Virus record (IMG/VR): IMGVR_UViG_3300044612_001159
Location: 51,666 to 115,665 of that record
DNA length: 64,000 bases
DNA from: a virus
Strand: one strand, 5' to 3'
This document shows positions 3,659 to 55,951 of this stretch, one piece after another. Both the position numbers and the translations under genes were made by a program. The notes beneath the pieces are model-generated. The model was not told the origin of the DNA. It ran no database searches and was given only the letters and a program-made list of their open reading frames with translations. How positions within the stretch are numbered: the first letter of the stretch is position 1; every line of letters starts with the position of its first letter.

Positions 3659-3680
3659 AAAACTATTATAGCATAGAGTA

Positions 3681-29982: not shown

Positions 29983-29989
29983 AATATAA

Positions 29990-30427
29990 TTATACCAGAC
30001 TGACTATTCCAGAATCATATATTTTTAAATCAGGATTTAAAGATGGGTTAACGGATGATGCCTGAACAACAACACGCACAGATGTAGTTCCAGTTTTAAT
30101 AAACGAATAATTTGAAGATCCTGTAGAAGCCCTAAATGTTGGAACAGAAGAGTCAAAGCCTATAAAAACATCATAGAGTATTTGAGTTGATATTTCTCCA
30201 GCAGACCAGTTAACCATTATTGTGTTTCCAACAACATTTATATCTCCAACACCAAGAAGAACTTCTCCAGATTCAGCAACAAATATTTGAGAATATGCAG
30301 ACTTTCTATTTTTATCATCTGATATTATCCTAAATCTTAAAACAACAGAATTGTTTTCAGTAACCTTTCCCAAAGAATCTTTTTTAATAATAACATTTTT
30401 TATTCCTTTATCTGGAGTTTTACTCAT
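29990..30427 (-). CDS. Putative minor tail protein
   Basis: Beta-rich, in tail operon. Confidence 0.55.
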   Translation of the reverse strand: MSKTPDKGIKNVIIKKDSLGKVTENNSVVLRFRIISDDKNRKSAYSQIFVAESGEVLLGVGDINVVGNTIMVNWSAGEISTQILYDVFIGFDSSVPTFRASTGSSNYSFIKTGTTSVRVVVQASSVNPSLNPDLKIYDSGIVSLV

Positions 30428-36628: not shown

Positions 36629-37299
36629 TATACCTCTTCCAGTGTTACAGAAACATTCCAGTAATCAAACTTGGTTCCTCTTTTTTCAACCGAATATGAA
36701 AAATCACTAATAAACATTTCAACTAGTTGATTATATTGCTGGAGATGCTTATACGGCTCTGGCGTACCCTTGAATATTCCTTTTCTATCATATGTAAGAA
36801 ATACCCAAAATGATCCCTTGTGTGAGTCATACCACTCTAACATGTCTGCTGCTCCTGCGCCTCCGTCTGTTGTGTATGCTTTATGTGGAGACAACCCAGT
36901 TGCTGAATTAAAATTTGGAAAATCCTCATGAGACCTAGATGGAATCATGTCCCAACTAGTGCTTATTGTAATCTTGTCTGCAATGTGATATGACCTCATT
37001 CGGCCATTAATCATTCGCTCCCGCTTTTCAATTCGCTCTGTCTTAATATCAATAGGCTGTCTGTTGTCATCAGTTAAAAATAAAAACTGGTCAACAAGAG
37101 ATTCATCCTCTATGCTTTCTGGATCAGTACCAACCTCAAAACCAATTGGGACATACAGTTTTTTCTTTGGGGTTGTTATGCTTGCAGGGTCTTCTACGAG
37201 TGTACCAGAATTTTCAGACCACAGCATACCGCTTGGTCTGTTATATTTTTTACGACCATTGACATACAACAGCCTTGGATCTACATCACCTTCTGCCAC
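36628..37299 (-). CDS. Distal tail-like protein
   Basis: Immediately after TMP; RERMINGRMR, WNVSVTLEEV. Confidence 0.6.
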   Translation of the reverse strand: MAEGDVDPRLLYVNGRKKYNRPSGMLWSENSGTLVEDPASITTPKKKLYVPIGFEVGTDPESIEDESLVDQFLFLTDDNRQPIDIKTERIEKRERMINGRMRSYHIADKITISTSWDMIPSRSHEDFPNFNSATGLSPHKAYTTDGGAGAADMLEWYDSHKGSFWVFLTYDRKGIFKGTPEPYKHLQQYNQLVEMFISDFSYSVEKRGTKFDYWNVSVTLEEV

Positions 37300-40200
37300 C
37301 TATAGCCACCCCCCTAATTCTTCTATCATCAACCCTCTTGATTGTTGCCATTACTGCTTGTGCAATTTCATCTGGATTTGCATCAGTCTTAGCATTAACT
37401 GTTAAGGTATATGTATTATTATACACTGAACCGCTAGACAATTCTCCGTTATTTATTTTTCTCATTGTATCTAGCCCATACGAATCAACAGCATATTTAC
37501 TCATAATAAACTCGCCTGGAGTTAACATTGCTGGAACTGTATCAGTACCCCTAGCAAATCCACCCATTGCAAATCTTTGAATTAAGCCACCCATGGCTTT
37601 CCAGTTTGCAAACTGCGATGCTGCTATGGCATTGCCACCAAACTTCTTAATATCTGCTGCAGCCTTTTTCTTTGCTGCTTCTTCTGCAGCCTTTTTAGCA
37701 TTTGCTGCCTTTACCTCTGCAGAAAATGCTGCTGCGGAGGCTGCTTTTTGTGCTGGAGTATTTGTTAGTTCGTCTAAATGGGCATATGGAGTGGCGCCCA
37801 TCTTTTTAATATTTGCATTAACAATTTCTTTATTAAAGGCATCTGCTCTATCCTTCATATTTAATAAATCATTAACATGGCTTCCTGCAGTTTGTCCAGC
37901 ATTCTTAGTAATATTTGCTACTGTAACAGCATTAGCCAATCTTTGCAAGTCTTCTAAATGAAGCGCTGCAGTTGATCCGCCAGTATTAAGACCATAGTTA
38001 AGTGCATCAGCAGTTGAAGATCCTGTACTGCCACTATTATTATTTGTGGTCGCACCGCCAGTATTTGTCGTGTTCACACCCCTAGGCTTGATGTCTGCTT
38101 GACTTGCCACACATTCACCTGTGTAATAATTGTAATATGGTCTTGAAGGTCCACATGGCCCTTGTGGTGTTGTAGTTGTTGTTCCCTTATCATCCTGAAC
38201 ACAGTTTCCATTTACCATGCTGAATCCTGTAGGACATGGTTTTGCACCTGTCTCATCCTTAACACAGTTTCCATTTACCATTTTGTATCCTGTAGGACAT
38301 ACTGTTTCGGCATCACTCTTAACGCAGTTACCATTAACTAGTTTAAATCCTGGAGGACATGTAGTAACACCTGGACCTTCATACTCTCCAGCGGGAATGA
38401 TTGGATCTGTATTTACTGTTTGATTCTTATAGGCAGCAATCAAAGCATTAACAATATTAAGAGCATCTTGCATTTGCTTAACGAATTGTGCGGAACTAAC
38501 TCTTGCAAGATCAACCTCATTTTTAATTCTTTCCCACGCATCTCTTGTTTTTCCTAATACAGTAATTCCCTCAATCGCTTTTTCTAAAGCAAGTTCGTTA
38601 AGTCTTAATGTCTCTCTGTTTGGCTCAAGACTCTTTTGTTCAATATCATAAATTTCGTCTTGAAGTTCTTTAATCCTTCCCTCAATTTCAATTCTACTTC
38701 TGCCGTCTTTAGATCTTAGTTGTGACAGTTCGTACTCTCTTGACTTTTCTAAGGCATCTCTTTGTTTTGTTACAGCATCGGCTGCAGACTGCGCTCTCAT
38801 TTCTTGTGCAGCACGAGCAGCAGCAGCAATGTCTCCAGATGTCAAAGCCTCAGCAAGAGTTAGTTGACCTTTCTGTTGCTGCGATATTGAGGCATTTGCT
38901 TTTTCAACTTCATCAAGAGCCTTTAATCTTTCATCATATTTTTCATTTACCTTGGCCTCTTGGTCTTCAATTTCTTTTAAGCCTATTTCCTGTATTCTGA
39001 TCTGTTCTTGTTTTACGGCAATTAGTTCTTCAGCCTTTTTAATTTCATCTTTTAATTTTTTATTTTCATCATCAAACTTAAATCTTAGCCTTGTTTCTTC
39101 TACATCAAACGCTTCCATTGCATTGCTATATCCAGTATCAAATATATCTTGCATTCCTTCAATAGTTACTTGCTTAAGTTTTAATTCAACCCTTGCTTTA
39201 TCTACTGCCTTCTGAAGCAAATCTTTAAAATCTTTATTGTCTATACCAAAATTAATTAATAAACCTTGTAGTGCAGAACTGTCCATAACTGCCTGGAGTT
39301 GTTCTTGTGTCAAACTTTCAAATGCTCCAGTGATTTTTGTTAATAAGTTTGCTCTATCTTTCAACTCTTGCTCTTCTTGTATACCAGCCTCTACAGCGGC
39401 ATATTCTCTTTTGGCCTTAGTTGATTTATTCCATGCCTTGGTTATCTTTTTTATTTGTTCATCAGACAACTTTTTATTGGCAATTGCTGCTGCAAATGTG
39501 GCATCTGCTACTGCTTCTAGAGCAACAGAACCCTCTATACCTGCTGCCTGCAATCTCTTAAGTGCTGCAGTTTGATTGCCTATTTGGTTGGCCATTTTTT
39601 GCTGCTCACTAACAAATTCTCCAAGTTTAACAGACTGTAGTGCATCTCCAATGCTCTTTGCACCATCTTTTATTTTTATAATATTTCCTTTTTTGTCAAA
39701 CTCAAACAACTTACCCTTCTGCTTTTCATATTCTTTAGGATCCATTCCGACTATGAGTTCAATCAGGTCTTCTCCTGCTCCTAGTTTTCTCATATCGTTT
39801 TCAATACCGCTAAAAATTTCAATAGTTTTCTTTCCACCAAATAGTTTATTTAGAGACTTGAATGAGGCATCAAAACCTTCTGTAACCTTGATTTGATTTT
39901 TACGAACATCTCTTAGGCGTTTTAAAAGATCATCTAATGGAGATGACTTTGGCTTATTTCCACTTCCTTTATTTGCTCCAGGTGCTGGCGCATTTGCAGT
40001 TATAGATGCCCCCTCTGTAACAGCCTTAAAGCCTTGCTGCTCTTTATAATGTGCAATTAGTGCAGCCTGAGACAATCCTTTGTACTGTGCTCCACCGTAT
40101 GTTCGTCCCTCAATTACTGTATTTTCTTTTAGCCATGTCTGATAGTCATCTGTTGCAACAATCTGTGGGTCTGGAACATTGATGACAGAAGCAATTGTAG

Positions 40201-43200
40201 TTGTATACACCTTTTGCTGGTCTTCTGTTAAAGTTTTAAAGTAATCTTCATTAAATGCATTAGTTCCTTTAACCTGTGGAATAATTTCGTACACCATGGT
40301 TGCTGTTAAATCTTTTTTGCCTTCAATGGCGTCAAGCATTGTGTTTAGTTGTTGATAGGCTGCATCATTTTCTGTGTAGTATTTAACCAAAACATTAGAC
40401 GGTATAACTGCGTTTAAATTGTTTAACTTAATCATATTTTTAGCAAAGTCTAGTGCGTCTGAATCTTCTTCAAATGCTGAAACTTTAGTAATAAATTGTG
40501 CCTGTACTGTTTTGTCAATATCTCCCTTAGCGTTAAGAATATTTTGAGCAGCAACACCAATTGATTCAGATGTAGCACCACTAAACTTTGTTATAATATT
40601 CATCATCTTTGGAGCAATGTCTTTGTTATCTGTTGCCATCTGAAGAAGTTGTCTAAAAACTGATGGAGGAATATCGCCACTTGCCATTTTTGCCTGAATT
40701 AAAAATTCTTGACCTTTATCTATTGCGCCATCTTTACGAAGTTGTCCTGCCTGTGCACCAACAACATCCATGTAAGCAATTTCATTTGGGTTATCTTTAT
40801 ATCTAGCCTTAGCAGCCTTTTTCATTCCACTCATCATTGACTCTTGCATTCCTCCAGCACTGTTGTACTGAGAAACAATATCTTCTTGAATAACTCTTTG
40901 TGCTGCTGTTAAATCATTTCTTTTATCAATTAACTTTTCTTGCAATTCATTTGCTTCATTAATTTTTCCTTGAAGTCTTAACTCTTCAACTTTCTTTTCC
41001 ATATACAAATCAAATGAATCTAGCATTTGCTTATTTTGCTCCATTGCAATTTTAGCATCTACTGCATATGCCGCTCCAAGTTGTGCAGATTGTTGAGTAA
41101 ATTTCTTTGAGGCAAAATATCCACCAATTGCTCCTGCTGCAGCACCGATACCGCCACCAATTATTGCTCCAACAGCATTTCCAAGAACTGGGACAACGCT
41201 TCCAAGAGCAGCACCAAGTGTTGCTCCTATCGCTGCGCCACCTGCAGCAGATGCGCCTATGCCTACCTTTTGCATTGTTTTTTGTCCAGCAAGTTTAGTA
41301 ATCATGCCAGCATTTTCAATGTTTGACATGTTTGACTGCATTCTCTTTTGATTTTCGGCAATCATTCTTGTTCTAACTTCAAGAGGGTTTTTATCTAAAT
41401 CCTCTCCGTTTGGTCCAAGAACTTTTTCCATTTGTGCAATAACTTTAAGGCCTATAGACATATCCCCTGCTTCTTTAGCAACATTCATTGCAAGACTTTT
41501 TGCCTGATTTACATCCATTGCTCCAGACATTACTGCAGTTGAAAGTTGACTTGTTAAATCAGAAACTGCTTGACCACCCCTGCCTGCTGCATTTTGTTTT
41601 GCTATGTTTTCAGTTAAAGCCTTTCCTTCTTTTGTTTGAGTAAAAGCCTCGCCGTATGTTGTTTTGCCTGTTGCTGGACCTAGCATTGAGAATGAATTCT
41701 TTCTTCTTAGATCCATTTGTTCTGATGCAGTTACTTTACCGCCAAACTTTGCGATACTTTGAATAGCAGAAGATGATCCTCTAAACTTTTCTGCTTCTTG
41801 CAAAACCTTTTCTTGAGCACTATTAAATGCCATTCTTAATGCAATAAATGCTCCAACTGTTGCTGTAAGCCCTGCAATTACTGCCATTACTGGGCTCTTT
41901 AGCATAGGCAAAATCATTGAAAGACCCATCAAAGGCATCATTATTTTTTGAGATATCTCCCCGACTTTTCCTGGAGCCATTGATCCTAGCATTGCAATAC
42001 CAGAAGCAGCCATGGCTGCGCCACCAACACCCATTCCTGGCCCCTTGCCTGCTGCGACTCTTGCGGTCCTCTTGCCTTCTCGCTTTTGAATATAAGACTT
42101 AATTCTTCCAGATGGGGTCATTTTTTCTCCATCTTGTGCCATGTTTGCAGCAACCACTGGCTGAGGAACTGGAGCCTGTGCTGCTATCTTACTTAGTCTC
42201 TTGTTATCTCTTTCTAACTTTTTTAGTTTACGACGAAGAGATTTTTGGTTAGCATCTATTGGCCCTGTTCCGTATAGAGCAGTTCTAGACGCTGCTGCAG
42301 CAGACTGTGAAATAGTTAGACCAATCTTTTGTCCTGTTGACTTAGCCTCTGCTATAGAAGATCTTGCTCCAGCAACTATTGATGAACCTATTGCACTGCT
42401 TGATTCTGGAGCATCTGCAAAACCAGGAACTCTTACACCTCTAGGACCTTGAACGATTCTCTTGCCCTTTTTGGGCTTATTCATTTCTCTTGTATCTTTT
42501 GGACTACCTGACTTAACGCCTCTAGTTTTTCTTCTTGTTTTTGGCTTTTCTGTTTTTCCATCTTCATCTTCAACCAATTCATCTGGCTTTACTAGAATAG
42601 CGTTATGCTTTGCGTGTACGAGTCTCCAGTTAACCTTTTTGCCTTCTTCAAGCCTGTCTATCATTGCCTGATAGTATTTTTGATCTTCTGGTCCAAGATT
42701 AAATTTTGCTATTGTTTCTTTTAGTTTTGGTAATGTTCTATCAATTTCAGCAATCATTGCTTTATGGTATTCATCAGGAGTCATATTCTTTGCAATGTCT
42801 GCCGTTGCATTTCCAAACCAGAACGGAGACTTTCCTGCTGCTGGGCCTTTAACTCCACTTAAATTCTTTTCTGCCATTTCAAGCATTGATGGCATTCTTT
42901 CTGCATAACCTCTTGCTCCAGATGCTCTATCTAGTACACCAGCCTTGCCAACATCTACCAACCTATTTCCGCCTAAGTTTCCTTTCTTTAGGTCGTCATC
43001 ACCACGAAGATTTGCTGCAACTAGTTGTCTAAAATATTGTTCCCTGCTAAAATTGCCTGACAATTCTTTTGGAGTAAACTTTGGATCATAGGCAGACTCA
43101 AGAGCAAACATTGTTTTTCCAGTGTATGGATCCTTAATAACTCTAAGTTCTTGCTTTGGAGCCTCAAGCCCATGAACATCTCTTGCTATTATTGTTGCTC

Positions 43201-46200
43201 TTTGCTCTGCAAGCGCTGCTCGCAAATCAGGCATTGGCTTTACATAAACTTTTTTGCCGTCTTCTGTTAGGAACACTCCAGAGGCATCACGAGCAGCAAC
43301 ATTGCTGTATCCAGTACCCTTTTCAAGTTGCTTGCCATATGTGGTAATTGGTCTGCCATCAATGTCTTCTGCGGTTAAGCCTTGTAGTGCTGCTCTTGCT
43401 TTTTCAAGAAGTTTTTTCCCTGCAGTACCGCCAATCTTTACTGCACCAGTGTCTCCACCAGATCTTCCAGTTTTAAATACCCAGTTTCCGTTTTTATCCT
43501 GTACTAAAGAACCATTATTTCTTTTATCTGTTAATGTCCAGTCATTTGGATTTTTAGACTTCTTCTTTCCACTAACTTCTGGTCTTTCGTATGCAACAAC
43601 CTTGTCACCATCTCGCTTAACATCAAGCATTATTCCTGGGGCTTTTTTAGCAAGATCCTCTATTGCAGAAACAACAGATGGGTTAGTGTTTGGAGCATAA
43701 GTTCTTATATTTTTGATAAGATCTTCAACAGCCATTTTCTTTGCGTCATACTTTATAGTTGAAGCAGATGCAGCGCCGATGCCAGCAACAGAGTATATCT
43801 TTTCAATTGCTGGTGCAATTCTTGGGTCTCTTGCAAGACCACCCATTACACCTGTTTTAAGATTACCCATTCGTGAGTATATTACTCTGTCACCTATTTT
43901 TGTTCCATCTGGAAGGTTTTGCAAAGACAATATTAAGTTTTTACGAATCTTGTTTGTTACTCTTGAAGCCTCGTCTGCGGTTAAATTAGAAGGTGGCTTC
44001 ATTAACTGAGAAGTCATTGTTTCTACAGCACGAGCCTTTCTTATTTCTGCCTCGTATTCTCTTACATCTAAAGCATTATTTGTAAGTTTCTTGTGAACTT
44101 CTTCTGGAATGTCAAACCCAAGTCCACGATATCCTAATGCTCTTTCAATTCCTCTTGCCCCAAGGCTTGTTCGTATATCTCCAAACTGATCAGAAATATT
44201 TCTTGTTTGCATTTGCTGTGGTTTGGTTGCATGTGCAAAAACTGTATCTGGTTTAGTTCTTTTCTTTTTAGTTTTAGGAACAGCCGTTCCATCATTAATT
44301 AAAGAAGTAATAACTGGTCTATTTGCTGGATCTTGTGCTGCTTGTGCAGGAATAACTGCTTCGCCAGGAGATAGCAATGCTGGGACAATATCGCCTGCAC
44401 CCATTGGTCCTGGAACTCTTTCAACGCCTGTTGAGTATCTTCTACTTTGTGGGATACCGCCACCTTTTCCACCTCTACCTACTGGTCCAGTAAATCCTAA
44501 TTGTGAAGCGATTGCCCTTTGATATGCTGCTGCAAGTGCATTTACTGCTGCAGTTTCAGAGGTAAAGGTTTGTCTAAGTTTTTGGTGAACTTGATCTAAT
44601 GATGCCGCTACTGCAGATGCCTCAAGTTGTTGTTGAGTTAAATAGTCTGTTTGGTTACCAAGTATCTGTGTTGATGAGCCAGCACGGTTAAACGAGGTTT
44701 TCATTGTTGCAAATAACTTAATTATATTTGCAAGTCCGTTAGCCAACAGACCGAATGTCATAAGAGCAATCGGTCCAATTGCTCCTAGCGCTACGGTGAG
44801 AATAGTTAAAAACTTTTTACTTCCTTCTCCCAGGTTATTAAATTTATCTAAAATCTTAGATGCAAATTCTACAATTGGAGTAAGAGCCTTTAAGAACTGC
44901 TCTCCAACTGGTGCAAGTGTTACCTTAAGATCTTCTATAGACTTTTTAAACTTATATGTTGTTGTATTTTCTATCTTGTCCAATTCTCGCTGTGACAGAA
45001 TTGCTAACTCTTCTGTTGTTGCTTTTGTTAATCCCAAAACTCTGGCTGCCTGAGAGCCCTCTGCAGTTACGTTCTTAAATAGTGTTGAAAGTCTTGAAAA
45101 CTGGAACTTTCCAAACAATTGCTCAATTGCTCTTGCACGATTAAGCGGATCTAGTGTATCTAAGGCTTGTGAAAACCCTACAACAGTTGCTGCAACATCT
45201 CCTTTATTTGCTTCAACAATACCTTTAATATTTATGCCAAGCCCTGCGAGCATCTTAGATGCTTTTTCAGATGGATTGATTAATGATGCTAAACCAGACT
45301 TAAGTGCGTTAGCGCCTTCTGATGCATTAATACCACCTTCCTTCATTGCTGTCAGGAAGAATGCAAGATCTTCAACATCTCCGCCCAATTGTTGAACCAC
45401 TGGTCCAGCCTTTGGAATTGCAACTGTTAAGTCTTCAATAGATACAACAGTTTGGTTTTCAACTGCGTTAAGGAAGTCAATCTTTTTTGCTAAATCTTCT
45501 GCTGCTACACCAAATGCATTTGTAACAGAAATAGTTGTCTCAAGTGCCTGCTCCTGTTCAACACCACCAAGAACAGCAAGTCTTGTTGCTTCGGTAACTT
45601 GTGCAGTAAGTTCTGCGCCCATCTTACCCATTGCTGCAGCATTTGCTGCCATCTCCATGGTTTTTTCTACCGCAACGCCATACTTAGTATATTCTTTTGC
45701 AAGTGTCTGTATCTGCTTAACCATTGCGTCAGTTTCTTCTTGCGTAGTAAACATTTCACCATAAACACGCTTAAACCTAATTGCTTGTTCTTCAAGTTTC
45801 ATGAAGGTTTTTGCAGCAGTAGATCCAAGAAGCATAAGCGGAACTGTAAAACCAACCATTAACTGGCGACCAGCCCACTGCGTATTCTTACCAAAATTTA
45901 ATAGATTTGTTGAGCCCTGCTTTAGTAATTGATTTAATAATTGCTGACGCTGTGCTGCAATCTGTGTTTGTGTAGCAAGATTTTTCATGTCCAGCGTAAG
46001 CGGTCTTACAGCAATGGCTTGAAGGGCTCCATTTGCCCCACGACCCATCTTTATATACTGGGTCTGGATATCTTTTACACGCTCTCGTGCAACTTTATTT
46101 ATTGTTTCAAATTCAGACTTAAAAAGCCTACCGAAAGTTTTAGTGGCTGCTCCAGTATATCTAAAATATTCTCTGGAGGATAGTTTATTTTTTTCTAAAG

Positions 46201-46438
46201 CATTAGTAAAGTGCTCTGTGCTTGTAGCAACCGTTCTCATGGCTGCTTGGAATTGTCCAGTAGCATTTATGCTGTTCATCAAGTTTTGTGCTTGATTTGC
46301 TGCTACCGCTGACGCTGCTGCGCCAGACTTTGACATCTGTGTGTGGAAGGCTGATATTTGACGCTGTAGAAGTTTTAAACTTGCTAAAGCATCTGACGTA
46401 TCAATATTTACATGAATATTGGATTGAACATCAGCCAT
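37286..46438 (-). CDS. Tape measure protein with internal kinase-like domain and Cys-rich repeats
   Basis: 3050 aa, TP901-type TMP core (ANALKSGLASL), TM segments, coiled coils, downstream of tail chaperones. Confidence 0.93.
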   Translation of the reverse strand: MADVQSNIHVNIDTSDALASLKLLQRQISAFHTQMSKSGAAASAVAANQAQNLMNSINATGQFQAAMRTVATSTEHFTNALEKNKLSSREYFRYTGAATKTFGRLFKSEFETINKVARERVKDIQTQYIKMGRGANGALQAIAVRPLTLDMKNLATQTQIAAQRQQLLNQLLKQGSTNLLNFGKNTQWAGRQLMVGFTVPLMLLGSTAAKTFMKLEEQAIRFKRVYGEMFTTQEETDAMVKQIQTLAKEYTKYGVAVEKTMEMAANAAAMGKMGAELTAQVTEATRLAVLGGVEQEQALETTISVTNAFGVAAEDLAKKIDFLNAVENQTVVSIEDLTVAIPKAGPVVQQLGGDVEDLAFFLTAMKEGGINASEGANALKSGLASLINPSEKASKMLAGLGINIKGIVEANKGDVAATVVGFSQALDTLDPLNRARAIEQLFGKFQFSRLSTLFKNVTAEGSQAARVLGLTKATTEELAILSQRELDKIENTTTYKFKKSIEDLKVTLAPVGEQFLKALTPIVEFASKILDKFNNLGEGSKKFLTILTVALGAIGPIALMTFGLLANGLANIIKLFATMKTSFNRAGSSTQILGNQTDYLTQQQLEASAVAASLDQVHQKLRQTFTSETAAVNALAAAYQRAIASQLGFTGPVGRGGKGGGIPQSRRYSTGVERVPGPMGAGDIVPALLSPGEAVIPAQAAQDPANRPVITSLINDGTAVPKTKKKRTKPDTVFAHATKPQQMQTRNISDQFGDIRTSLGARGIERALGYRGLGFDIPEEVHKKLTNNALDVREYEAEIRKARAVETMTSQLMKPPSNLTADEASRVTNKIRKNLILSLQNLPDGTKIGDRVIYSRMGNLKTGVMGGLARDPRIAPAIEKIYSVAGIGAASASTIKYDAKKMAVEDLIKNIRTYAPNTNPSVVSAIEDLAKKAPGIMLDVKRDGDKVVAYERPEVSGKKKSKNPNDWTLTDKRNNGSLVQDKNGNWVFKTGRSGGDTGAVKIGGTAGKKLLEKARAALQGLTAEDIDGRPITTYGKQLEKGTGYSNVAARDASGVFLTEDGKKVYVKPMPDLRAALAEQRATIIARDVHGLEAPKQELRVIKDPYTGKTMFALESAYDPKFTPKELSGNFSREQYFRQLVAANLRGDDDLKKGNLGGNRLVDVGKAGVLDRASGARGYAERMPSMLEMAEKNLSGVKGPAAGKSPFWFGNATADIAKNMTPDEYHKAMIAEIDRTLPKLKETIAKFNLGPEDQKYYQAMIDRLEEGKKVNWRLVHAKHNAILVKPDELVEDEDGKTEKPKTRRKTRGVKSGSPKDTREMNKPKKGKRIVQGPRGVRVPGFADAPESSSAIGSSIVAGARSSIAEAKSTGQKIGLTISQSAAAASRTALYGTGPIDANQKSLRRKLKKLERDNKRLSKIAAQAPVPQPVVAANMAQDGEKMTPSGRIKSYIQKREGKRTARVAAGKGPGMGVGGAAMAASGIAMLGSMAPGKVGEISQKIMMPLMGLSMILPMLKSPVMAVIAGLTATVGAFIALRMAFNSAQEKVLQEAEKFRGSSSAIQSIAKFGGKVTASEQMDLRRKNSFSMLGPATGKTTYGEAFTQTKEGKALTENIAKQNAAGRGGQAVSDLTSQLSTAVMSGAMDVNQAKSLAMNVAKEAGDMSIGLKVIAQMEKVLGPNGEDLDKNPLEVRTRMIAENQKRMQSNMSNIENAGMITKLAGQKTMQKVGIGASAAGGAAIGATLGAALGSVVPVLGNAVGAIIGGGIGAAAGAIGGYFASKKFTQQSAQLGAAYAVDAKIAMEQNKQMLDSFDLYMEKKVEELRLQGKINEANELQEKLIDKRNDLTAAQRVIQEDIVSQYNSAGGMQESMMSGMKKAAKARYKDNPNEIAYMDVVGAQAGQLRKDGAIDKGQEFLIQAKMASGDIPPSVFRQLLQMATDNKDIAPKMMNIITKFSGATSESIGVAAQNILNAKGDIDKTVQAQFITKVSAFEEDSDALDFAKNMIKLNNLNAVIPSNVLVKYYTENDAAYQQLNTMLDAIEGKKDLTATMVYEIIPQVKGTNAFNEDYFKTLTEDQQKVYTTTIASVINVPDPQIVATDDYQTWLKENTVIEGRTYGGAQYKGLSQAALIAHYKEQQGFKAVTEGASITANAPAPGANKGSGNKPKSSPLDDLLKRLRDVRKNQIKVTEGFDASFKSLNKLFGGKKTIEIFSGIENDMRKLGAGEDLIELIVGMDPKEYEKQKGKLFEFDKKGNIIKIKDGAKSIGDALQSVKLGEFVSEQQKMANQIGNQTAALKRLQAAGIEGSVALEAVADATFAAAIANKKLSDEQIKKITKAWNKSTKAKREYAAVEAGIQEEQELKDRANLLTKITGAFESLTQEQLQAVMDSSALQGLLINFGIDNKDFKDLLQKAVDKARVELKLKQVTIEGMQDIFDTGYSNAMEAFDVEETRLRFKFDDENKKLKDEIKKAEELIAVKQEQIRIQEIGLKEIEDQEAKVNEKYDERLKALDEVEKANASISQQQKGQLTLAEALTSGDIAAAARAAQEMRAQSAADAVTKQRDALEKSREYELSQLRSKDGRSRIEIEGRIKELQDEIYDIEQKSLEPNRETLRLNELALEKAIEGITVLGKTRDAWERIKNEVDLARVSSAQFVKQMQDALNIVNALIAAYKNQTVNTDPIIPAGEYEGPGVTTCPPGFKLVNGNCVKSDAETVCPTGYKMVNGNCVKDETGAKPCPTGFSMVNGNCVQDDKGTTTTTPQGPCGPSRPYYNYYTGECVASQADIKPRGVNTTNTGGATTNNNSGSTGSSTADALNYGLNTGGSTAALHLEDLQRLANAVTVANITKNAGQTAGSHVNDLLNMKDRADAFNKEIVNANIKKMGATPYAHLDELTNTPAQKAASAAAFSAEVKAANAKKAAEEAAKKKAAADIKKFGGNAIAASQFANWKAMGGLIQRFAMGGFARGTDTVPAMLTPGEFIMSKYAVDSYGLDTMRKINNGELSSGSVYNNTYTLTVNAKTDANPDEIAQAVMATIKRVDDRRIRGVAIGGRR
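38196..38359 (-). repeat. Three tandem CPxG(F/Y)xxVNGNCV repeats inside TMP
   Basis: About 60-63 bp units visible in DNA and protein. Confidence 0.9.
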
Positions 46439-46456: not shown

Positions 46457-46780
46457 TTAGTTATTTACAAGATTACCAAGTAGAGTTGCGTCTGAAAGTC
46501 TAATTCCAGATGCCTCTTCGACAATCTTATATACTGTAGGAAGATCTATATTTTCTTCTAGGGCTTCCTTGTCTTCCGCCAACTCTGGCTTGTATTGTTG
46601 CATTGCGATTTGTACACACTCCATAAGTAGAGTCATTGACTTTTCATTGTCTTCCGCTACTTTGGCGATATCTTCAAACTTCTTCATAAACGGACGAAGT
46701 AGTGAGATCTTTAATGGTCTTACCTTGATCTTTGTTCCATCGATGAGAGTTACTGTCTTTTCTTCCGTGGCAGTTGCCAT
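46457..46780 (-). CDS. Tail assembly chaperone (G-like)
   Basis: Directly upstream of TMP; SD AGGAGGA; own promoter TGGTATAAT at 46808-46816. Confidence 0.75.
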   Translation of the reverse strand: MATATEEKTVTLIDGTKIKVRPLKISLLRPFMKKFEDIAKVAEDNEKSMTLLMECVQIAMQQYKPELAEDKEALEENIDLPTVYKIVEEASGIRLSDATLLGNLVNN

Positions 46781-46837
46781 TTATTCCTCCTTATAAGGTT
46801 AAAGTTAATTATACCATAGCGGAGTCTATTTTTTTTG

Positions 46838-47518
46838 CTATTCTATAACCTCATAGGTTAGGCCCATTCCTATTCCAAAACCAGCCCTTTCTGCATTTTT
46901 ACCCTGAAGTGCAAGGATATCATTTCCATTTTCTGCTGCACCTTTACTAAATACCCTAGCCTTCATATCTTCCCATTCATTACTATTCCCTGAATTTTTA
47001 TCAAGATCAACACCCTGCATAGCAGCAGCAAATTTTTTATCACTATAATCTAAATCTCTTTTAGCCTTAATCGTTGCAGTTAGTTCTGGCATTGACAAAG
47101 ATTGTTCTAATTCCTCATAGTCTTTCCAAATGCCAATCAAAAACGCCTCTGCTTCTAATTTTGCTAAATCCAAAGTCTCCCAGGAAGATCCACTATCTAC
47201 GGCTTGAGACTTTACTGGCTCTTCTGATTTTTGATTAATCTTAATTCCTGCTGCAATATCGATAACCTCATATATTGTTGGTAAGTCTAAATTGTCTTCA
47301 AGGTCATCTATAGTTTTTATATATGGAGCATATTGCTTCATTGCTACAAGGGCACAAAGAACCAAGATAGATATTGATTCATCATCTGTTTTTGCTAATT
47401 TTATTGTTTCAAATTTTGTTAAAAATTCTCTAAGATATTTTATTTTAAGTGGAGCAGCCTCAACTATTGTTCCATCAATCAGAGAAAAACTTTTCTTTTC
47501 ATATACGCTTGTTGCCAT
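46838..47518 (-). CDS. Tail assembly chaperone, long form (GT-like), paralog of the downstream gene
   Basis: N-half aligns with 46457..46780; extra C-half (WKDYEELEQSLSMPEL). Confidence 0.72.
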   Translation of the reverse strand: MATSVYEKKSFSLIDGTIVEAAPLKIKYLREFLTKFETIKLAKTDDESISILVLCALVAMKQYAPYIKTIDDLEDNLDLPTIYEVIDIAAGIKINQKSEEPVKSQAVDSGSSWETLDLAKLEAEAFLIGIWKDYEELEQSLSMPELTATIKAKRDLDYSDKKFAAAMQGVDLDKNSGNSNEWEDMKARVFSKGAAENGNDILALQGKNAERAGFGIGMGLTYEVIE

Positions 47519-47538
47519 TATATAAGTATACCAAATGG

Positions 47539-47566
47539 AAAAGCCCAGACCTTGTGAGTCTGGGCT
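47539..47566 (-). terminator. Intrinsic terminator after major tail gene
   Basis: AGCCCAGAC/GTCTGGGCT stem plus TTTT. Confidence 0.8.
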
Positions 47567-47583: not shown

Positions 47584-48240
47584 TTAGTCGAGTGAACGAT
47601 CTACGATTTTACCGTATGATGCGTCATCGTTTGGAAGGAGACGGAATGATACTTCAAACATTGAAGCCTCATCACGCTTTGCTGATACTGTAACATTCTC
47701 AATTGAGAGTGCACGATATGCAACATAGATTCTTTCCTTTGGAGTTGCTGAAGAACCAGATCCTGGTCCTACTGCTACTAGTCCACGCTCTAGTGGAACG
47801 TCACCAATATCACCTGCGGACATCTTCAATGTTGAGAGTCCTGATGCTGATACTAGGTCTGTATCATCTGCTGCAATTGCAACTAGAAGATTTTCTAATG
47901 TTGCCTCTGCGAACGATGTATTTAGATTAACTGTCATACCTTGCTTGAATAGACGAGCAACGTCGAGAAGTTGATCTACTGCTACTTCACCGAAATCTGG
48001 CTGGAATGCGAGTTCCAAACCGTTCGATGTATAACCTACGTTTGTGTAATTTTCGTCATCGAGTGACAAAGTTTCCTTGTAGGATGTGGCGGATGCGGTC
48101 ATTGCTGGAAGATCTAGTAACGCTTGTGCGTCAGTAATCTTTCCAGTTGATGAGTTGTATCCGATTGGACCTGCATTATGCGTAAATAGTGCTGCTGCAC
48201 CTACGATAATGTTACTACTTGAACCACGGCTGTATGCCAT
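47584..48240 (-). CDS. Major tail (tube) protein
   Basis: NIIVGAA, VGYTSNG, VDQ, AEATLENL; SD GAGGTG. Confidence 0.85.
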   Translation of the reverse strand: MAYSRGSSSNIIVGAAALFTHNAGPIGYNSSTGKITDAQALLDLPAMTASATSYKETLSLDDENYTNVGYTSNGLELAFQPDFGEVAVDQLLDVARLFKQGMTVNLNTSFAEATLENLLVAIAADDTDLVSASGLSTLKMSAGDIGDVPLERGLVAVGPGSGSSATPKERIYVAYRALSIENVTVSAKRDEASMFEVSFRLLPNDDASYGKIVDRSLD

Positions 48241-48308
48241 ATATTCTCACCTCTTTCATTTTATTAAAAGGGGGTTTGTTTCCTCACCATAATTATACAG
48301 CCTTTTTA

Positions 48309-55933: not shown

Positions 55934-55951
55934 GACAATAAGTATACCATA

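Follow-up and report, generated by a model that had tools for sequence, protein, structure and literature searches.

The DNA analysed here, referred to as the window, is the final 64 kb of one 115,665-bp record of an uncultured lake phage, and the G+C content of the whole record is 37.6%. Its late genes lie on the minus strand in the order portal, protease/scaffold, capsid, connector genes, tail tube, a long ORF (GT), a short ORF (G2), and tape measure. GT and G2 stand between the tube gene and the tape measure gene, which is the canonical position of tail chaperone genes. The features of this region are as follows.

47584..48240, minus strand: tail tube (major tail protein) gene, 218 aa, matching phrog_2175 (5.6e-30) and, weakly, Pfam Phage_TTP_17.
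47535..47566, minus strand: terminator-like hairpin (stem-loop 47542-47566) followed by a short U-rich tract, from the terminator scan.
47525..47533, minus strand: extended -10 promoter-like element TGGTATACT, ending 6 nt before the ATG of GT.
46838..47518, minus strand: GT gene, the long ORF of 226 aa, from the ORF list.
47234..47518, minus strand: N-terminal G-like domain of GT (G1, residues 1-95), from its similarity to G2 and to phrog_10504.
47183..47233, minus strand: in-frame linker of GT (residues 96-112), which replaces the frameshift overlap of the relatives.
46838..47182, minus strand: T-like C-terminal domain of GT (residues ~113-226) with the stop codon, matching phrog_10474 (1.6e-16).
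46808..46816, minus strand: extended -10 promoter-like element TGGTATAAT upstream of G2, with a 27-nt leader, from spacer conservation.
46785..46792, minus strand: Shine-Dalgarno (SD) sequence of G2, AAGGAGGA, read directly, its AAGGAGG being conserved.
46457..46780, minus strand: G2 gene, the short ORF of 107 aa, matching phrog_10504 (5e-20).
37286..46438, minus strand: tape measure gene, 3050 aa, from the ORF list and from the position of and homology to the annotated tape measure proteins of relatives.

In Streptomyces phages, the gene annotated as major tail protein occupies the position that corresponds to the tube gene. The tube gene comes with a TATAAT of its own (48292-48297, minus strand), an SD-containing leader, and a hairpin on its flank. 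With 3050 residues, the tape measure protein would be expected to specify a very long tail. The tape measure gene starts only 18 nt past the G2 stop codon (19 positions from the first stop base to the A of the ATG), and therefore no T-like extension of G2 is possible.

The initial annotation had described the short ORF as similar to the N-terminal half of the long ORF, which carries an extra C-terminal domain, and the pairwise alignment that it proposed bore this out. In BLASTP, GT residues 1-95 aligned with the whole of G2 with significant similarity (43% identity over 97 residues, 76% positives, E 8e-26). Both G2 and GT (2e-18) matched phrog_10504, which represents the G part, and GT residues 130-218 matched a separate family, phrog_10474, which represents the T part. 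Both families are without annotation in PHROGs. The relationship of the C-terminal half to the T part was confirmed by its homology to the T of related phages, where a conserved slippery heptamer precedes T in the -1 frame. The short and long forms in the window are thus encoded by separate paralogous genes with no frameshift, and the G part shared by the two predicted products is paralogous here, not identical.

In a Pfam search at the gathering score, neither GT nor G2 matched any family, and a Pfam search over 146 family members returned a single weak match, to Phage_TAC_19 (0.0088). A profile search of PDB sequences retrieved only a designed minibinder (E 0.013). A single-sequence structure prediction of GT reached a pLDDT of 35 and was of no use. 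An AlphaFold2 model of GT was built from an alignment of 146 homologues, with a pLDDT of 89, a pTM of 0.71, and a pLDDT >94 for residues 11-90. It predicts an N-terminal hairpin-plus-helices domain, a lower-confidence linker, and a helical C-terminal domain. Foldseek of this model against solved structures (PDB) gave no significant match. Against predicted viral structures, the matches that followed two homologues mostly bore the names tail assembly chaperone, tape measure chaperone, or GT at weak scores, and they included proteins of Arthrobacter phage Kitkat, Staphylococcus 6ec, Enterococcus EfaCPT1, and N15 GT (weak E-values). The best solved match to the G domain, from a search other than Foldseek, was YqbN (3klu_A; Z 5.9, rmsd 3.5 Å), in which 84 residues were aligned on model residues 1-93 at approximately 1 Z unit above the next rows. 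YqbN (PDB 3klu) is presumably an XkdN-like tail chaperone of a Bacillus subtilis PBSX-like prophage; its fold likeness to the G domain is modest at this Z, and the sequence identity is 12%. The predicted identity of GT and G2 as tail assembly chaperones derives mainly from their position, from homology to genes with the -1 overlap and the heptamer, and from the annotation of homologues, and the modelled fold adds weak support.

The gene arrangement of the window was surveyed in related phages, as the initial annotation had suggested. The best 80 relatives of GT in viral contigs (76-98% identity) all had the tube gene, fused GT, G2, and the tape measure gene in that order. A further 65 loci, retrieved through more distant proteins, had the same four-gene order, with tube protein identity down to ~60%. 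This amounted to ~145 fused loci in total, and G2 followed every complete fused GT; the exceptions to the order were four, of which three were ended by the contig end and one (L177) had a frame break. In every complete locus examined, G2 was present if and only if G and T were fused, and no intermediates between the split and fused states were seen among the loci examined. Within the fused clade, dN/dS was 0.12 for G1, 0.10 for the linker, 0.08 for T, and 0.09 for G2. The fusion and the second G are therefore conserved under purifying selection.

The linker was open in all fused-clade relatives, the synonymous sites at the junction varied freely, and no conserved slippery run was found at the GT junction across these relatives. 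A programmed -1 frameshift was not found here, as G and T share one open frame. The GT linker contains an A5 run, CAAAAAT, where a -1 slip would yield a short G1 product; this idea was considered and discarded, as the run is not conserved and its synonymous sites are free. Protein P0015 (136 aa), seemingly a G ending inside the T motif, was also discarded; its close relatives are intact, and it most likely reflects a homopolymer error. In both P0015 and L177, the frame is lost at a T run (T7 in L177, ~2100-2130) that falls within E-V-F-L, a conserved motif of the T domain, and both breaks are probably homopolymer errors. The counterpart of this T run in the window is GCGTTTTTG (47137-47145). 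For protein P0021, no locus was confirmed in viral contigs.

The majority of the family was found in a different arrangement. A megablast of the region against the phage collection matched nothing, and a tblastn of GT against it retrieved 130 records (127 from Streptomyces and 3 from Rhodococcus phages), each in two pieces and many annotated as tail assembly chaperone. Two records were inspected, those of Coruscant and JimJam. In both, the -1 frame of G carries T and is open ~57 nt back into G, and the conserved T-part motif W-E-x-L-D-L-A-K-L-E precedes the annotated start codon of the second ORF. Both records list G and T as two genes (Coruscant, L001 3286-3345; JimJam, L002 2786-2851), and they carry a noncanonical C_CCG_GAA where low-GC relatives have C_CCA_AAC. 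When 1.84 billion representative proteins were searched, only a handful of the 398 matches were full-length fusions, and the others were G-only (~100-115 aa) or T-only (~85-110 aa).

The low-GC relatives comprised 31 viral-contig loci (35-49% G+C), each with one G and with T in the -1 frame at an overlap of 37-46 nt. A slippery heptamer was present in 31/31 of them, exactly 36 nt before the G stop codon, as CCCAAAC (CCCAAAA in one), and it reads C_CCA_AAC in the G frame. A second G copy was absent from all 31 loci. One G gene carrying T in its -1 frame corresponds to the classical lambda type of locus, and most of this family has it.

The initial annotation had placed the long gene first, behind a terminator and a leaderless promoter-like element, and had assigned the short gene a promoter-like motif of its own and a strong SD sequence. 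Both assignments were upheld by the spacers of the relatives. The hairpin at 47542-47566 has a free energy of -24 kcal/mol (z -5.8); in 33 distinct spacers, its 9 pairs were almost never broken, and 3 of them showed compensatory double changes. The U tract that follows is short and interrupted. Beside the hairpin, TTTGGTATACTT(A/G)TATAATG was essentially invariant in the 33 distinct spacers while the hairpin varied. The GT start has a -10 hexamer 6 nt before the ATG and no SD sequence, and the invariant TGGTATACT at this 6-nt spacing implies a putative leaderless mRNA. In the 39 distinct GT-G2 spacers, TATGGTATAATT...AACCTTATAAGGAGG was kept while the bases right after the GT stop codon varied; TGGTATAAT and AAGGAGG were invariant in 39/39, and the sequence just upstream of TGGTATAAT varied. 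The terminator scan showed no terminator-like site from GT to G2 or from G2 to the tape measure gene.

The window contains 21 copies of the extended -10 motif TGNTATAMT where 7.4 would be expected, and most of them are in spacers and on the coding strand. Genome-wide, 14 of the 44 copies of the motif had an ATG at +6/+7 (background 0.039, binomial P 6e-10), and thus leaderless starts behind an extended -10 element appear to be a general feature of this phage. Most of the other copies stand 18-38 nt before an SD-led start. Sites of the leaderless type in the window, all on the minus strand, include 3665-3673, 29989-29997, 47525-47533, and 55941-55949.

In more distant fused loci, G2 was SD-led and the GT start followed a -10-like element at 6-8 nt; in one group of them, GT instead had a short leader holding a G-rich stretch. 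In split-type relatives and in Streptomyces phages, a terminator, TGNTATAAT, and an SD sequence precede the single G. The ancestral signal set of G therefore seems to front G2 now, and GT has a different, leaderless set.

Parts of the region were present as contigs in 16 metatranscriptome runs (aquatic/freshwater), of which four, from four studies, were examined. Contig depths in these runs were as follows.

Run X1: tube 12,000-59,000; genes upstream of the tube gene ~3; GT 519; G2 207-264, with 202 for the contig over G2 and the tape measure start.
Run X2: tube 2,900-24,000; genes upstream of the tube gene ~3-4; GT 361; G2 287-426.
Run X6: tube 56-413; genes upstream 0; GT uncovered, which does not mean absence; G2 19-62.
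Run X7: tube 4-246; genes upstream 0; GT uncovered, which does not mean absence; G2 6-13.

The region is transcribed in lake samples. The depths mix several strains, they cannot rank genes or give transcript ends, and they are read here in that light. Across the hairpin, the contig depth, as weak evidence, fell 14- to 110-fold in two studies, and this large step down past the tube gene is a weak hint of what a leaky terminator would give. Contigs of X1 and X2 bridge the tube 3' end, the hairpin, and GT, and one also reaches G2. By contig depth, G2 RNA was not consistently above GT RNA (GT was deeper in X1, and only G2 was covered in X6 and X7). Adapter-joined contig ends at 47585 and 46770 were off the predicted start sites and were left unused. 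With a depth of 10^3-10^4 against ~3 for the genes upstream, the tube gene looks like a separate, very highly transcribed unit.

The initial annotation had attributed the pair to gene duplication. Paralogy itself stood at the 43% identity given above; how the second copy arose was examined in a maximum likelihood tree of 63 G sequences. A long branch carried the clade of G1 domains (97/98). The G2 proteins made up a separate clade (99/96), which lay in a polytomy with the split-type G proteins, and the tree did not place G1 and G2 as sisters. This topology would fit a tandem duplication followed by fast change of the fused copy and, equally, the acquisition of a second G.

G2 was further compared with the tape measure N-terminus (window 46457-46780 and 45800-46438; loci L056 and L060-L077). 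Where G2 was 62-65% identical to that of the window, the tape measure N-terminus was 53-56% identical, and where G2 was 91-100% identical, the N-terminus was 88-98% identical. The identities of the tube protein, G1, and T overlapped between the low-G2 and high-G2 groups. This co-variation and the conflict between the G1 and G2 trees point to a recombination breakpoint between GT and G2, and G2 would therefore have been exchanged as a module together with the tape measure gene.

Taken together, we consider it likely that the locus is a two-gene tail assembly chaperone system, with a fused long form (GT), a separate short form (G2), no recoding, and distinct expression wiring for each gene. GT would be the long form that, by analogy to lambda gpGT, links the tape measure protein to the tube protein, and G2 would be the short form that coats the tape measure protein; these binding roles of G and T, like the promoter activity of the -10 elements, are presumed. 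Ancestrally, one G gene would have had T in its -1 frame, with slippage on C_CCA_AAC connecting the two. In the clade of the window, the fusion and a second G copy would have taken over from the frameshift, so that no recoding would be needed.

The signals suggest how the two products could be made in different amounts. The GT start has no SD sequence and lies behind the tube terminator, and read-through RNA would therefore not yield GT, which would be translated from its own leaderless transcripts alone. G2 has a strong SD sequence and no terminator precedes it after GT, and it would therefore be translatable from every transcript crossing the region: read-through RNA from the tube promoter, GT transcripts, and its own transcripts. 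This wiring would give G2 at or above the level of GT, probably well above it, and we infer that a high G:GT ratio is set by these signals. Actinobacteria can translate leaderless mRNAs well, so GT need not be rare. More tentatively, and as a possibility that we do not favour as strongly as its absence, the whole arrangement may reflect one evolutionary switch, from the frameshift to a fusion plus a second G, with the ratio set by the mode of initiation and with G2 exchanged as a module with the tape measure gene.

Other readings of the expression and role of the two genes were weighed against the two-gene chaperone system. The region might be expressed only as long read-through transcripts, with the TGGTATAMT elements inactive and the ratio set purely at translation initiation. 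The RNA contigs of two runs that bridge the tube 3' end, the hairpin, and GT, one of them running into G2, fit this account, as does the short and interrupted U tract after the hairpin. We nevertheless think it unlikely, because the flanking spacer varies but the -10-like elements and their exact spacing do not, the same motif stands 6-7 nt before an ATG at 14 genome sites, and an internal AUG with no SD sequence is a poor start, from which GT would hardly be made. It is also conceivable, if quite improbable, that G2 is a tape-measure-specific accessory chaperone and that GT or a processed fragment of it does the classical chaperone job. The identity of G2 tracks that of the tape measure N-terminus, with tube, G1, and T identities overlapping between groups, and the G1 and G2 trees are incongruent, as an accessory factor would predict. 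Linkage to the adjacent gene is equally expected of an ordinary short form, however, which itself binds the tape measure protein; the occurrence of G2 if and only if G and T are fused is the pattern expected of a substitute for the short product, and the junction shows neither a slippery site nor a conserved cleavage-like feature.

That GT and G2 are not chaperones and act elsewhere in tail morphogenesis or in regulation would agree with the empty Pfam search and with the Foldseek search, which found no significant match among solved structures. We regard this as very improbable, given that the two genes hold the canonical slot between the tube and tape measure genes, that their homologues show the hallmark -1 overlap with a slippery heptamer and carry the tail assembly chaperone annotation, and that chaperone and GT proteins dominate the fold matches. 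The least credible reading is that the in-frame fusion is an assembly or sequencing artefact over a frameshift site that still works. Two records (P0015 and L177) do break frame at the T run in the T domain, but the fused frame is open in ~145 independent contigs, drawn from many samples, the linker has a dN/dS of ~0.1 with free synonymous variation, and the close relatives of P0015 are intact.

Among the closest known systems is lambda gpG/gpGT, with the -1 frameshift that long-tailed phages conserve (Levin 1993; Xu 2004, 2013, 2014; reviewed in PMC5009743). The rule of this frameshift and its rationale have been set out along with the binding roles in lambda, where the G parts bind the tape measure protein and T binds the tube protein (PMC5009743). 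The window resembles lambda in the position between the tube and tape measure genes, the common N-terminal domain, the T domain on the longer product, and the presumed roles. It differs in having neither a slippery site nor an overlap; a plain ORF encodes the long form, and the short one has its own gene. With no slippery site and with separate genes, slip efficiency cannot fix the stoichiometry in the window, unlike in lambda.

The closest relatives in sequence are the Stanwilliamsviridae (Streptomyces/Rhodococcus phages such as Coruscant and JimJam), which we take to be non-contractile-tailed phages, and the 31 low-GC relatives. They hold true homologues of G and T at ~40% identity, and their neighbouring genes are the same as those of the window. 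Unlike in the window, their G gene stands alone, with T in its -1 frame and no second copy of G; this single G is preceded by a terminator, TGNTATAAT, and an SD sequence, which is the layout of G2 in the window.

The G/GT frameshift is among the most conserved recoding events of phages, and its usual explanation is that it fixes a protein ratio. An apparently independent and abundant lineage of lake phages gave it up for two genes, which suggests that the frameshift is dispensable where expression signals can take over. The frameshifting sisters with the same neighbours amount to matched natural constructs for asking how much the ratio matters. If the single switch proposed above did occur, the two states would form a natural matched pair on why the frameshift is otherwise so conserved. 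For annotation, no slippery site should be expected here in the phage group of the window, and the G and T ORFs of its split relatives should be joined.

The initial annotation had presented separately expressed paralogs as an alternative solution to the frameshift, and as a claim of novelty this was overstated. According to PMC10885494, which cites Vladimirov, Gautam and Davidson (Virology 2022), T4-like phages carry a short gene and, besides it, a longer one in which the short part is fused to the downstream part. As described there, the T4-like pair (gp26/gp51; TAC-N, TAC-NC) resembles that of the window in consisting of two paralogous genes with their own promoters and no frameshift, and the publication of such a pair already covers the claim (PMC10885494). 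T4-like phages are contractile-tailed, whereas the relatives of the window are the Streptomyces/Rhodococcus phages. Set against T4 gp26/gp51 by description, the window has its two genes in tandem, the long one leading, in the interval from the tube gene to the tape measure gene. The two-gene principle is therefore already known, and the window is a clean further example of it. The two-gene state apparently arose here independently of T4-like phages, with which it was compared by description, because frameshifting sister lineages exist. New in comparison with the known systems are a second, apparently independent lineage with the two-gene state, related to Streptomyces/Rhodococcus phages; the tandem long-first layout with its predicted leaderless and SD-led wiring; and the strict co-occurrence of the fusion and G2, set beside frameshifting sister lineages from the same habitat.
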